Assembly: GCF_024502345.1 (NCBI RefSeq)
Contig: NZ_JALDNN010000002.1
Length of the DNA stretch: 64,000 nt
DNA from: Escherichia coli
Lineage (GTDB): Bacteria > Pseudomonadota > Gammaproteobacteria > Enterobacterales > Enterobacteriaceae
Reading direction: 5' to 3' (one strand)
Shown: one piece after another, positions 5,101-11,100 of the stretch
Numbering within the stretch: position 1 is the stretch's first letter
Layout of the letters: the number at the start of each line of letters is the position of its first letter
Position numbers: made by a program

Positions 5101-8100
5101 GTGCCGACAGGAGGTGAAAGATAATGCATCACAGGTTCAGCAACGCCAAAGAACATCAGGCCGATCCCCATCCCTGCCGAGAAAAGCATCGCAAACCAGG
5201 AGTGATAGCTAAAATCAGGCTGCGCATGGTCCGGACCCAGTTTGATATCACCGTAGCGTGAGAGTCCCAGGAACGAGACACTCAGTAGAATCAGGGCCAC
5301 TGCAAGGATGTAGAACCAGCTGGCATTCGTGAAGATTTGTTGCTGAAGTAGTTTAAAATTTTTGTCGGCGACATCCGGGAATACAGCGGCAAAGGCGACA
5401 AGAAGGAAAATTAACAAAGCAGATGTAAAGAATACCGCTTTGTTAATCTGGCTTTTAGACTTCTTTTGGATTGTATCATTTTCACTCATAATCATTTATT
5501 CCATTAATTAAAATCCGCACTGTATAGAGGGTACTACATCTCAAAGATTAGCAAACTTCAACTTACGATGCGGCGTCAATCGGAATGCAGAGTGCAAGAG
5601 TGGCCATACAGATATCCTGTTGATAGTCTGCCAGCCGTCTTCTGGAGCATTTGATTTGCATAAATTGCATCAGATCTGGGGATTCACTTTGATTAGAGCA
5701 ATATTGAGAATGACTTACTAACGTCTGATGTTGCGTAAAGCGGGCTTTAAGGATGGTCGCAATGTCAGAGGTAAGGACAGACGTTCAGGATGCAAATAAT
5801 CAGTGCCGGTTCGTCGCTGATTTTCCTTCAGGCTGACTTGTCCAAAACGAGTAACAATCGCCGGTGATGCTGCCAACTTACTGATTTAGTGTATGATGGT
5901 GTTTTTGAGGTGCTCCAGTGGCTTCTGTTTCTATCAGCTGTCCCTCCTGTTCAGCTACTGACGGGGTGGTGCGTAACGGCAAAAGCACTGCCGGACATCA
6001 GCGCTATCTCTGCTCTCACTGCCGTAAAACATGGCAACTGCAGTTCACTTAGGGGTCCGCTTGGAAAAAGGAAATTATCCTACGCTAAGCGCATTTTTTG
6101 CACAGATGGCTACCGACTGAACGTAACGTGTGAGTCATGATCAGAAATGTGTTAACTCTAGGAATTGACACGACTTACTGTTTGATGGGGAAATCATGTT
6201 TAGCTATCTCAAGGCTATGTATCATCAATCAAAAATTCAGGCTGAACTCAAGGTACAGATACATGAACAAACTACGGTTAATGCTATCTGTCATCACCCT
6301 GAATCAATCGAGATCATTGCGGTTTGTTCGACTGATGCGTATTACCGAAAACGTAAGGACGCTGCTTTTCTGACAACCTGTTCTGTGCTCATGCGTACTT
6401 TAAAAGATGAATCCGTACCGATGGTACTACGGAAAACAGCATGGCGATTATTGAACGAAAGATACCAACGAATTAAGTTAAATCAGGCTTATAGGATAGA
6501 AAATTTCTTGCTTGTTGCCGATTTTGAATATGCTCTCGAAGAACATGATGAACTAGCAGAGTAGTACTAGTGAGGCGATGAATACCGACAGTTAACGTGC
6601 ATGTGACTTAAACGTCCGAAACCGAACGATTACGTACACCATGCCGTTGATCTGTCCGAAAGTAGGCAAAACCAGAAACGGACAGCCTGACAGTTCCGTA
6701 CATCCCTTGCGGTCAGGGGTTTCCGATCAATGGAACGAAATCACCCGTTAAGCTTGAAAATCTTAACGAATGGAAGGGACTTCCCCTAGATATGCGCCTG
6801 ATTAACTTTCGTGCAATCATAGGATAAACATTGACCCAGAGGGATTCGTTATGACCATCACCACTGTCGGTATCGATCTTGCTAAAAATGTGTTTGCTGT
6901 TCACTGCATTGACCAAAATGGTAAAGCTGTTCTGGTTAAACCCAAGGTGTCGCGTGCAGCACTTTCTGAACTCATCGCAGGTTTACCTCCCTGTGTCATT
7001 GGAATGGAAGCCTGCTCGGGTGCCCACTATTGGGCAAGATTATTCAGGCAGTATGGCCATGATGTCCGGTTGATGGCTCCGAAATTTGTCTCACCCTATC
7101 GCATGGCGGGTAAGACCGGGAAAAATGATGCAGCTGATGCAATAGCTATTTGTGAGGCAGTGCAGCGGCCGCATATGCGCTTTGTACCAGTCAAAGACGA
7201 AAGCCAGCAGGCAATGCAATGCTTACATCGGACAAGACAGGGATTTATCCAGGAAAGAACAGCAACGTATAACCGTCTTCGGGGCCTGATATCTGAATTC
7301 GGGGTTATTGCCCCACAAAGCACTGATGCTCTGCGTCATGTTGTTTCTGACCAGAAGGAAACTCTGCCAGTACAGGTTAGGCTGTGCATTGATGATCTAT
7401 TGACACATGTCACTAATATTGAAGAGAAAATCGCCGAATATGACAGGGTATTATCTCGTGTGGCCAAAACAGATCATCGCAGCCAGCAGTTAATGGAACT
7501 GAAAGGTGTTGGGCCCACCACAGCGAGTGCGCTGGTCGCCAGTATTGGCAATGCCCATGATTTTAAGAACGGGCGCCAACTGGCAGCCTGGTTGGGGCTA
7601 ACGCCATCACAATACAGTAGTGGCGGAAAATCAAAGCTTGGCAGGATAACAAAAGCGGGTGATGCCTATCTGCGAACCCTACTGGTCCAGGGAGCCCGTT
7701 CTGTAATGGTAGGGGCAGAGAATAGAACGGACCCGTTTAGCCGTTGGGTCTGCTCGTTGATTGGTAGGCGGGGATACTGGCGTGCTGTCGTTGCAATCGC
7801 CGCCAAGAATGCGAGGTTGTGCTGGGCATCATTACATTACGGCGATGACTTCAGACTGTATTCAACAACATGAAAAATTTAACTGAGTAGTAACTGAACT
7901 GTAAATTGTTGATGGTAAAGGGTTAGACCCCCGTGAGAAGTATCTGCATATCCTACTGGATATCACTATCCGATTAACGAAGGAGGATCTCACGAGCGTC
8001 TTTCATCAGGGTCCGAATCACTAGCGATTCAGCATGACCGTTTATAGTAGCGCAGTCTTATCCCTTGCCTTTCATTGATGAACAGACAGAAATTAAAAAC

Positions 8101-11100
8101 CGGCGTTGACTGTTCGGGGAAGCCCTTATAGTAGGATAATTTCCGAATTCCAAGCGGACCCCCAGAAGGATATAAAAGCCAAAATCGCCGCCCTGACCTG
8201 CGTCCATTTCGAGGTAACCGAAAACGCCGAGAATCTGCTGCATAATTCTCTTGCCGCCTGGCAGAGCCCACAGGATACCTCACTGTGGCTCGACGACTTC
8301 GGCTCCGGCTACGCGGGAATTAACGCTATTCGCGGTTATCACTTTGACTATGTGAAAATTGATAAGGATTTTTTCTGGCACCTGATGCGCAAAGAGTTCG
8401 GCCGCCAGCTGATGGATGCGCTGGTGACCTTTTTATCGCGCAACCATCATAATGTGATTATTGAAGGTGTCGAAAGCGAAGCCCATAAAGAATGGCTGCA
8501 GGGAATGGAGTGGTTTGCTATCCAGGGACATTACTGGCGGGAAGTCAGTATTGAACAACTGGTCGCCGATGATATTGCCATGTAAAAAAAGCCGGGAATT
8601 CCCGGCTTTTTAACGTCACTTAATTATAAACTAATTCCCACGTTGCCCAGCTGGTAATCGGCCCGCTGGTGGCGCTTTTCGGCGTTGGCGAAACATAGCC
8701 AACGTAATAGGTGAACAGGCCGCCGCTGACCGCGCTTTCCTGCAAACGCACCTGATTTTGCTGCGGGTCCGCCGGGACAATTTTATTACTCTTATCCAGC
8801 GTATTATTATCGTTAGTCGATAGCGCCAGATAAATATTCTGCGCTCCATCCGGCAAGGTATTGGCCAGATACCCGGCGTTTTCGTTACCGACCGCCGTCA
8901 GTAAAAAACCATCGACCCAGCGCACGCTGACCCGACGCACCTCATCCTGCGAGGCTGCCCCACCATCATGGCGCAGCTGGCAGTTTGACAGTGCCAGGGT
9001 AAACGGCTGCGGTTTCATAAACGCCCCGGCACCGCGATCGTGGACTTCCGCCAGGCTGACCGGCGCCAGCCAGACATTACCGCTGCCGGCATGCTGGCCG
9101 CCGTTTAGCGCGATGCTACAGGAAATATCCGTCACCCGCCCGGCAAAATCGACCCGTCCGCGATCGTAATTCGTCTCGAATCCCCACGCCGAGGAGGCAA
9201 TAAGCGTCCCGCTTATCAGGGCCAACTGAATGAGTCGTGTGCTATTTTTATACTTTGCTGAATCACTCATACCCGCCTCCCGCATTAATCGTACGTCAGG
9301 TTAAAGACCAGGTGCGACTCCACTTCACCGGTACTGGTAGTCGGCGCATATTGATAGAAGCGCGCATGGAGAGGCAGGGTGATATAACGAGTTTCCTGGT
9401 TTTGTAATGTACCAATATTATATTTTTTGTTGAATTCCAGAGGAGTGTTGTCCTTTATAACCTGCACACCAACGCCCTTAGCAGCAGAATTTCCGGTCTT
9501 TTCGTTTAGTAGAACACCTTGATTCGCTGATGTATTTGTAGCTAATGTTCCAGAAAATGAGGTGTTAATATTTGCATAACCACTGACACTGACTCCCCCA
9601 CTACACTCCAGTTTAATATCAAATGGTGTACCGCCAGCCCAGGTCCCCACCCCTTTTAAATCAGCTCGTTTAATCGTGCCTATATCGACATTCATATTTT
9701 TGCCACCTAAAATGGTACAAGAAGGTGAAACAATTGTAATGGCATCAGCATTAAGGCTGGTTTTAAGGATTGTAAATCCTGGTCCGTACTCTGTATACGG
9801 CCCACTGGCTAAGGTTCCACTCCCTGTTGTGGTACTGGTCTTAATTATATCTAATGTGAATGTTGAACCTGCGAGTCTAAAGGAGGAACCTGTCGTGGTA
9901 TAACTATCAGGGTAGATCATACTGATCTCCCCTTTACGTGAGAAACGTAAACCAATTCCAGGAATTGCAGTTGAATAGACTTTATTGGCCCCCTGAACCA
10001 AACCAGCAGCAACAACTTTCGCATCGAATTTCAGAGTAGTAATTCTATCACATGTAACATAAATCGTATTATTATCCGGCATTGGCCATGTTTTAGTTGC
10101 AATGACACTCCCTACTGGTAAGTCCGGGCTAACAACCACGCGCCCCATAGCCATATTAATTTCATAGGCACTATGAGATTGCCAACATGATGCCCATGCT
10201 GACGTTGTCCCCAGCGCCATTAAGCCAATAAAAAGCGTCAGTTTTTTCATTAGCGACATAGCGTTTCCTTTGTTTTTTCCTGACTTAATTCCACCGAGCA
10301 CTGTCCGCCGCTCCACTTAACCGTGGCCTTCGGCGCGCTGGCGTCGCTGATAAACATCATGCTGCCCTGCCCCACCACGCCGATCTCTTTCCCGGACGGA
10401 CCGAATATCGTGGCGGCAAACGGTAACGGCAGGCCATTAGCCTGGCGCGCCCGCAGAGTGATGTTGTTCTGCAGCGTGGTATCGAAGGAGACCTTGACCA
10501 CGCTCCCTTCCCACGGCACCACCTGCGCCACGGTACTGCCGAAGGCGACATCGTCATTGCTGCCTTTCGGGTCAATTTCAACGGAATTTATCCGGTAAGG
10601 CCGCAGATACGGCAGAATGGCGTAGCCGTTGCTGTCGATGCGGGTACCCGGCGAACCGGGCAACATCGCGCCCGCGGCATCTTTCGCTTCGATCAGCGCC
10701 ATAGTAGTGCCGGTTTCCGGCGAGAATACGACGCCGTGCTGATGCGCGATTAGCGTCCCGCTGGCGCCCACGCCGCTCTGGCGATAGCCTTCGCCCTGGC
10801 TATAGCTGCCGTTCAGCGTCGTCCACGGGGTACGGTAACTGCCGTTCAGCGCCACATCGTGCTGGCCGCCAGTGGCGGTGGTCGTCGACACGCCGTAGTT
10901 AAGGTTGTTTTCGCTATCCAGCGAACCGTTGACGCCAATCTGCGAGCTGGCGAAACGCGAATTGTTAAACGCGGTATTCGATGTCAGGTTAGCGGTGCGG
11001 TTTTCACCGAACCACAGCGGGTAGCTAAAGTTGAGAGACACTCGATCGTCGCGGCGGTGGCCGGAACTATCCGGGGTATAGACGCGCTGGGCGCTGACCG

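Follow-up and report, generated by a model that had tools for sequence, protein, structure and literature searches.

The chromosomal mrkJ gene of Klebsiella pneumoniae has been described as coding for an EAL phosphodiesterase (Johnson & Clegg 2010, as cited in PMC5023117). Plasmid-borne cassettes of the type 3 fimbrial genes are devoid of mrkHIJ and of the MrkH box, and an IS1-derived -35 box with a 17-bp spacer was shown experimentally for pOLA52 to form a strong, MrkH-independent promoter; some of these cassettes carry incomplete EAL open reading frames (ORFs) (Madsen et al. 2016, PMC5023117). For pLN126_33, which harbours a highly truncated mrkJ, progressive erosion by mobile elements has been proposed (Norman et al. 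2012, PMC3402527). Here, we analysed a cassette of this kind in a 64,000-nucleotide stretch of an Escherichia coli contig (NZ_JALDNN010000002.1, assembly GCF_024502345.1; this whole stretch is called the window hereafter, and positions are counted from its first nucleotide), in which a 5′-truncated mrkJ lies between mrkF and an insertion sequence (IS), IS5708. An earlier note, made from the sequence alone, had attributed the truncation to that IS. Our analyses point instead to a 748-bp element of the Tn3 family as the agent of the cut, with IS5708 presumably a later arrival in one of the terminal repeats of that element and the fimbrial genes predicted to be expressed from an IS1-hybrid promoter. 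Taken as a whole, we consider this account of nested elements beside a gene remnant to be probable.

The cassette resembles those of pOLA52, pMAS2027, R485 and pLN126_33 (PMC3402527, PMC5023117) in being bounded by IS, in lacking mrkH, mrkI and the MrkH box, in having a -35 box from an IS1 end placed 17 bp from the native -10 box, and in retaining downstream of mrkF a remnant of mrkJ, the length of which varies among plasmids. At least 10 different mrkJ breakpoints are found among plasmids. The cassette of the window differs from the described ones in that its downstream breakpoint is the end of a non-autonomous Tn3-family element rather than of an IS, its remnant is comparatively long (140 codons), and its operon is a mosaic, with a K. 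pneumoniae-like mrkF and divergent mrkD and mrkC genes.

The mrkJ remnant (8163–8585, + strand) was delimited by DNA alignment and tblastn, using as references the full-length gene of plasmid pKPN-332 (L005) and the chromosomal mrkJ-mrkI-mrkH region of K. pneumoniae ATCC 13883. It comprises codons 99 to 238 and the stop codon. In the tblastn search of the 64-kb window, residues 99–238 of ATCC 13883 MrkJ matched positions 8163–8582 with 139 of 140 residues identical, and the DNA of the remnant is 99.8% identical to plasmid mrkJ genes. The homology starts at window position 8162/8163, which corresponds to nt 294 of mrkJ, at ...CCAGAAGGATATAAAAGCC. Absent from the 5′ end are thus 293 nt, or 98 of 238 codons (41%), and the 3′ 59% of the gene remains. 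The missing portion includes the ECL variant of the EAL motif (MrkJ residues 36–38). Searches by tblastn with MrkJ residues 1–98, MrkI and MrkH yielded nothing significant anywhere in the window, and no frameshift rescues a full-length gene. The earlier note had therefore correctly recognized a 5′-truncated EAL ORF convergent with mrkF, as well as the absence of mrkH and mrkI, and the alignment to K. pneumoniae mrkJ that it called for bears this out; its estimate that about a third of the gene is missing was too low.

A 159-residue ORF (8106–8585, + strand) reads from a TTG codon in IS5708 across the intervening repeat into the mrkJ frame and is no more than a mechanical read-through. Its similarity to EAL phosphodiesterase models is confined to their C-terminal half; it covers only positions 117–248 of the 255 of the NCBIfam profile PRK11596, with a score of 90 bits that is below the cut-off of 190, and the Prokaryotic Genome Annotation Pipeline (PGAP) annotates no gene at its position in a plasmid that is identical in this region. 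By its sequence the remnant is orthologous to MrkJ, but it is a gene remnant and not a functional MrkJ. Because the catalytic ECL/EAL motif is missing, its phosphodiesterase activity on cyclic di-GMP (c-di-GMP) is presumably lost.

The remnant has kept the surroundings of its 3′ end. As on the K. pneumoniae chromosome, it converges with mrkF and shares with it a putative palindromic terminator, in addition to the near-identity of residues 99–238; it differs from the chromosomal gene in lacking residues 1–98, among them the ECL motif, and the upstream neighbours mrkI and mrkH. The palindrome between the two genes, AAAAAGCCGGGAATTCCCGGCTTTTT (26 nt, 8586–8611), was detected as a self-complementary blastn match and is a candidate bidirectional terminator. 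A simple terminator scan of the interval between mrkJ and mrkF did not flag this perfect palindrome. As a side observation on the chromosomal reference, mrkH of the ATCC 13883 type-strain assembly (NZ_KN046818.1; L012 1941–1943, - strand) has an in-frame stop after codon 103 (..SLPECL-stop-VVQRRRDPR..), which divides this PilZ activator gene into two ORFs.

What cut mrkJ became apparent from plasmids that lack the IS. A megablast search with positions 6000–9300 against 72,556 plasmids retrieved several plasmids that matched both flanks but not the middle of the query, and a 100% identical stretch in the Enterobacter ludwigii plasmid pI9455333_MCR10, the identical plasmid mentioned above. PGAP lists there an 'IS110-like element IS5708 family transposase', mrkF, a 'fimbrial protein', an usher, mrkB and mrkA. 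Aligning two IS-free plasmids (L001, L002) to the window set the limits of IS5708 at 6769–8131 (+ strand), a length of 1363 bp with no target duplication; limits of 6768–8130 are also possible, as one G is ambiguous (1 bp). The ends predicted in the earlier note, 6768 and about 8130, were thus accurate. The uninterrupted site of L001 and L002 reads ...GAAAATCTTAACG joined to TAGGATAATTTCCGAATTCCAAGCGGACCCC..., or on the other strand GGGGTCCGCTTGGAATTCGGAAATTATCCTA joined to CGTTAAG, and represents a complete 38-bp terminal inverted repeat of the Tn3 type. The homology to mrkJ begins 31 bp past the end of the IS, and not at that end as the note had it.

With a 401-bp query taken from an IS-free plasmid and spanning the element, the repeat and the truncated mrkJ, we found the identical repeat-mrkJ junction without IS5708, at full coverage, in 17 plasmids. 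The junction with IS5708 is present in only three. At the breakpoint, mrkJ abuts the outer end of the right 38-bp repeat of the 748-bp Tn3-family element, and because 17 plasmids carry the same junction without IS5708, these comparisons identify the Tn3-type element and not the IS as its maker. The proximity of IS5708, which lies immediately upstream of the remnant with its right end at 8131 only 31 bp from the mrkJ homology, could suggest that the IS itself removed the 5′ part, by insertion into mrkJ or through a deletion next to it. We consider this highly improbable. Besides the shared breakpoint of the 17 IS-free plasmids, the 31 bp and 7 bp on either side of the IS form an uninterrupted 38-bp repeat in plasmids without it, and IS5708 is found at the same repeat position in contexts devoid of mrk genes. 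IS5708 was thus rejected as the cutting agent on the basis of the empty-site plasmids.

The transposase-less element consists of positions 6052–6768 and 8132–8162, amounting to 748 bp with a single ORF of 122 codons. Its left terminal inverted repeat (IRL; 6052–6089, + strand), GGGGTCCGCTTGGAAAAAGGAAATTATCCTACGCTAAG, was identified by sequence comparison and starts GGGGTCCGCTTGG... The right one (IRR; - strand) is split by IS5708 into an inner part of 7 bp (6762–6768, CTTAACG on the + strand), established from the empty-site alignments, and an outer part of 31 bp (8132–8162), whose outer end GGGG (complement of 8159–8162) is the mrkJ breakpoint. IRL and the reconstructed IRR are equal at 34 of 38 positions and are of the GGGG...TAAG type. 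At more than 15 independent loci the element is delimited by this repeat, and in more than 300 plasmids the similarity to the right end of the element stops exactly at the outer end of the repeat. Perfect 5-bp duplications flank four copies (AAGAT in L016, TTCCA in L021, ATCAA in L022 and TTTTA in L028), all in long, Mb-scale and probably chromosomal contigs. Based on these sequence comparisons, the 748-bp unit is a real, discrete transposable element, a non-autonomous member of the Tn3 family.

In the window, the element has no 5-bp duplication, as its flanks are ACTTA on the side of an IS1 fragment and CAGAA on that of mrkJ, and many plasmid copies also lack duplications. From four plasmid copies without any, it had seemed that the element never makes target duplications, an idea refuted by the perfect duplications of the chromosomal copies. 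The element is similar to non-autonomous Tn3-family derivatives, i.e. mobile insertion cassettes and Tn3-derived inverted-repeat miniature elements, in its 38-bp GGGG...TAAG repeats, its 5-bp duplications in simple insertions, its lack of a transposase and the existence of an autonomous relative with matching repeats. It differs from them in carrying a conserved orphan ORF and a res-like site.

The orphan ORF, found in the ORF listing, lies at 6196–6564 (+ strand). Its 122-residue product matched nothing in NCBIfam, Pfam, PHROGs or PADLOC. Its gene occurs in many contexts. In the assembly collection, about 3,900 blocks contain the exact protein and about 4,200 a close variant of it, and this unnamed family is confined to Enterobacterales. 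The AlphaFold2 model is all-alpha and confident (predicted local distance difference test score of 92), and a search of the PDB with it gave no informative structural neighbour. We found no published name or description of the 748-bp element, and a full-text search for the repeat sequence gave no paper in the literature collection used. Only the element and its orphan ORF may therefore be undescribed at this locus. As a speculation in which we place little confidence, the element might be a very abundant module, present in thousands of assemblies, that, in addition to offering IS5708 and IS4321-type elements a favoured landing site, serves as a portable recombination site and reshuffles resistance and virulence plasmids, with the orphan protein acting in transposition control, immunity or host interaction. 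A pattern search also revealed an additional Tn3-like inverted repeat of 37 bp, GGGGTTTCCGATCAATGGAACGAAATCACCCGTTAAG (6716–6752, + strand), within the element. It faces the right repeat with 9 bp between their inner ends, the two forming an 84-bp repeat-repeat unit.

The element has an autonomous relative, a 10–13 kb Tn3-family transposon with a tnpA gene coding for 992–994 residues and a tnpR gene, whose repeats differ from IRL at 1–3 positions and whose copies are flanked by 5-bp duplications (ACTAA in L033, TTGCT in L035). This transposon is the likely source of transposase in trans. Another candidate parent, L018, was rejected, as its tnpA is that of a Tn3/Tn2-type transposon which has itself inserted into the element. 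The cargo of the autonomous relative (L033–L037) looks related to redox and stress functions, with OsmC, TetR, CMD, thioredoxin, an OYE-type reductase, DsbA and SDR proteins, and its exact resolvase protein occurs in about 6,800 blocks of the collection.

On the left side, IRL abuts a fragment of about 189 bp that we read from the sequence as an IS1 left end (5863–6051, + strand). This fragment starts with GGTGATGCTGCCAACTTACTGATTTAGTG, which we take to be the IS1 terminal repeat. In L014, L015, L019 and L020, the flank AGTTCACTTA likewise lies directly before this repeat, and the L019 gene adjoining this flank matches PF03811 (Zn_ribbon_InsA). Four hybrids (L014, L015, L019 and L036) share with the window the junction between the IS1 fragment and IRL and are identical to it through position 6624. 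At 6625, within CGAAACCG followed by AACGATTACG, they switch to the tnpR side of the large transposon. In L014 and L036 the switch is at the centre of the palindrome CGAAACCGGTCGGTTTCG, which sits between tnpA and tnpR in the autonomous relative (L033). We infer from this pattern, which is as expected from a resolvase-type exchange at a res site, that positions 6610–6640 contain a res-like recombination site.

We propose the following course of events. The 748-bp element, mobilized in trans by the related 10–13 kb transposon, would have inserted at nt 294–298 of mrkJ (target CAGAA). Its left half would then have been exchanged with that of a copy adjoining the IS1 fragment and betT, most likely through resolvase-type recombination at the internal res-like site. 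Along with mrkI and mrkH, the 5′ part of mrkJ would have been lost in such an exchange, which would also have left the element without a 5-bp duplication. IS5708, which is found between positions 31 and 32 of the right repeat, would have arrived there later, in a sub-lineage.

Several observations weigh against parts of this account. A chimeric query for the ancestral or reciprocal junction, mrkJ(1–298) joined to IRL, found no covering record among the 72,556 plasmids, and the exact 25-mer of that junction had no match in metagenome contigs. The assignment of the res-like site is based on the recombinant junctions and on its position. IS110/IS1111 elements can excise precisely, so the 17 IS-free plasmids could be revertants. 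As regards the guide RNA expected for an element of the IS1111 type, no relevant Rfam match was obtained in 6000–8700, where only a chance microRNA match appeared, and the fold of the non-coding region of IS5708 is not more stable than those of shuffled sequences (z-score of -0.37). The matches to the target in this region, TATCCTAC (7949–7956) and TTAACG (7974–7979), are not significant, as the 8-mer was matched in 302 of 2000 shuffles (15%).

As neither search recovered the presumed ancestor, in which the element, with CAGAA on either side, would interrupt a mrkJ gene that is complete in all other respects, the proposed order of insertion and then exchange is our reading. An element already residing in the IS1 fragment by betT could, in one step of intramolecular replicative transposition into mrkJ, have deleted everything between, with neither a separate insertion nor an exchange at res. 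Intramolecular replicative transposition of Tn3-family elements is known to yield one-sided deletions, and this scenario would fit the unequal flanks of the window copy (ACTTA, CAGAA), the occurrence of the same left flank, the IS1 fragment, at other loci and the absence of the reciprocal junction between the mrkJ 5′ part and IRL from the plasmid and metagenome collections searched. Nevertheless, the same half with the IS1 fragment and IRL is joined at the res-like palindrome to a different right partner in the hybrids, which indicates that exchange does occur in this lineage, and frequent res exchange explains more simply why many plasmid copies lack duplications. We regard the one-step deletion as a fair alternative, possible but clearly the less probable course.

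In the revertant scenario, the junction formed with IS5708 already inside the right repeat, and precise excision later freed the 17 plasmids of it. IS110/IS1111 elements leave their sites in circular form, a seekRNA being needed for excision from the correct target (PMC11187229), and IS-carrying copies of the 748-bp element are common. However, with 17 plasmids without the IS versus three with it at this junction, parsimony favours a late arrival. We therefore think excision unlikely. It would change the order of events and not the agent of the truncation, which would still be the Tn3-type element.

IS5708 is a member of the IS110 family, of the IS1111 type. Its transposase gene (6851–7873, + strand) codes for a DEDD-type protein of 340 residues that matches NF033542 (IS110 family) with 356.8 bits, for a cut-off of 140, over profile positions 1–341 of 343; PF01548 and PF02371 are recorded on the 340-residue products adjoining the element in L024 and L030. 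IS1111 elements are recognized by a longer non-coding region downstream of tnp, and by subterminal inverted repeats of 11–13 bp with terminal extensions of 6–7 bp on the left and 3 bp on the right; the seekRNA, or bridge RNA, that arises from their non-coding region matches both target strands (Siddiquee et al. 2024, PMC11187229). IS5708 has 82 bp of non-coding DNA upstream of tnp (6769–6850) versus 258 bp downstream (7874–8131, + strand), the latter being the expected seekRNA/bridge-RNA region. Its subterminal repeats, AAGGGACTTCCCC (6774–6786) and the reverse complement AAGGG-CTTCCCC (8116–8127), agree at 12 of 13 positions with one gap, and the extensions are of 5 and 4 bp, or, with the ambiguous G counted in the left end, of 6 and 3 bp. 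An ungapped repeat finder did not list this pair. With TTGACT at 8106–8111, joining of the ends in a circle would give a promoter TTGACT-17-TAGAAT. The DEDD transposase, the long downstream non-coding region, the subterminal repeats and the absence of a target duplication all confirm the IS1111-like identity suggested in the earlier note.

Each of the seven copies of IS5708 that we examined measures 1363 bp and interrupts a 38-bp Tn3-type repeat after its position 31, always in the same orientation relative to the repeat. These copies span three variants of the repeat and include both ends of the 748-bp element (L024, L030). Based on these sites, this position is the preferred, orientation-specific target of IS5708, as is the case for IS4321 and IS5075, which are cited as inserting into the 38-bp terminal inverted repeats of Tn21-type transposons of the Tn3 family (Partridge & Hall 2003, as cited in PMC8269217 and PMC11187229). 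IS5708 shares with those two elements a DEDD transposase, subterminal inverted repeats, a long non-coding region downstream of tnp and the lack of target duplication, in addition to the single position and orientation inside the repeat. It differs from the IS4321 type in that its transposase is only 38% identical to that of the IS4321 family and in that it occupies another position in the repeat. In L004 (5875–5884), an IS4321-type element lies 10 bp further out in a repeat that already holds IS5708. Judging from such arrangements, the repeats of the 748-bp element are sites where IS1111-type elements collect.

Two further observations concern the interrupted repeats. In L024 and L030, IS5708 occupies both terminal repeats of one element, in mirror orientation. 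In the window, the last 7 bp of IS5708 and the outer 31 bp of the repeat together make a 38-mer (8125–8162, - strand) that differs from the intact repeat by two mismatches (CTATAAG for CGTTAAG). The interrupted end might thus still resemble a transposon end, or the similarity may reflect a resemblance between donor and target that is needed by this IS family.

The fimbrial operon itself is intact, as the earlier note had stated. The genes mrkF (8620–9270), the adhesin gene in the mrkD position (9285–10259), the usher gene mrkC (10250–12736), the chaperone gene mrkB (12748–13449) and the major subunit gene mrkA (13545–14153), all on the - strand, are uninterrupted and have protein accessions in the identical plasmid. 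We use the PGAP names of that plasmid, as NCBIfam gave only generic chaperone and usher matches below the cut-off for the five Mrk proteins. MrkF has 96% amino acid identity to K. pneumoniae-type MrkF, and the adhesin, named 'fimbrial protein' by PGAP, is a divergent allele with 60% amino acid identity to MrkD of pKPN-332. Comparison of 8162–12736 with pKPN-332 (L005) revealed a mosaic that is 99–100% identical to the K. pneumoniae type from the mrkJ remnant through most of mrkF. The identity drops sharply within the 5′ end of mrkF (about 9100–9210), to 45–64% at the nucleotide level in mrkD and 77–90% in mrkC.

Upstream of mrkA, the native sequence stops at an IS1 terminal repeat, and this IS1 end stands in place of the native -35 box, the UP element and the MrkH box. 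The resulting hybrid promoter of the plasmid type, PmrkA[P] (14365–14393, - strand), is composed of a -35 box TTGGCA from the IS1 end, a 17-bp spacer and the native -10 box TATATT, about 205 nt upstream of the mrkA ATG. It has 10 of 12 matches in a promoter scan, and the region of the promoter and IS1 junction is common to 99 plasmids. No MrkH box was found upstream of mrkA, and the sole near-match in the window, inside mrkC, is consistent with chance. Because the IS1-derived hybrid promoter has the architecture described for pOLA52 and no MrkH box, we infer that transcription of the operon is strong and independent of MrkH and c-di-GMP, whether mrkJ is intact or not. Fimbrial expression would thus be governed neither by the break in mrkJ nor by the 748-bp element or IS5708, and would be driven by this promoter. 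The deregulated expression considered possible in the earlier note is broadly the right outcome; its cause is the one already published, an IS1-end promoter without a MrkH box, and not the loss of mrkJ.

The open frame that runs from the TTG in the right end of the IS through the repeat into the mrkJ frame raises the question of a functional remnant, e.g. a 159-residue protein expressed from the IS end that binds c-di-GMP or is dominant-negative and affects fimbrial regulation. However, the remnant lacks the ECL/EAL motif along with the N-terminal 41% of the domain, the promoter scan detected no promoter-like site at the IS end that faces outward, and the PGAP annotation of the identical plasmid has no gene at this place. 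Moreover, as the operon promoter has no MrkH box, c-di-GMP signalling through MrkH would have no target in cis. We find a functional remnant scarcely credible.

Beyond the promoter, the IS1 end from which the -35 box derives is interrupted in turn, as a scar of 30 bp resembling an IS903 repeat (14395–14424) splits the IS1 terminal repeat (region 14381–14560). A second, different IS110-family transposase gene is found beyond this scar, at 14481–15557.

The locus is an ordinary mosaic junction, in which a dead mrkJ fragment is bounded by a non-autonomous Tn3-type element, one terminal repeat of which harbours an IS1111-type element. There are already published reports of eroded mrkJ remnants, of missing mrkHI genes and of plasmid type 3 fimbriae that are expressed from an IS1 hybrid promoter independently of MrkH. 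The biological weight of the case is small, and its value lies in annotation. The mrkJ remnant should be annotated as a pseudogene fragment whose truncation is not attributable to IS5708, and the repeat halves that flank IS5708 reveal a nested Tn3-type element that is missed by automatic pipelines.

The host replicon is an mcr-10 IncF plasmid, so that a biofilm adhesin with presumably constitutive expression is linked to colistin resistance (mcr-10.1), a linkage that has already been reported. Judging from its collinearity with pI9455333_MCR10 (99.9% over 13.8 kb), the window carries a gene for a xerC-type tyrosine recombinase at about 18736–19731 and mcr-10.1 at about 20098–21717, both on the + strand. 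The mcr-10.1 region lies about 6 kb beyond mrkA, which links the colistin-resistance gene to the fimbrial cassette. Lastly, a perfect 38-bp inverted repeat of the Tn3/Tn2 type, GGGGTCTGACGCTCAGTGGAACGAAAACTCACGTTAAG (28887–28924, + strand), marks another Tn3-family transposon or a fragment of one.

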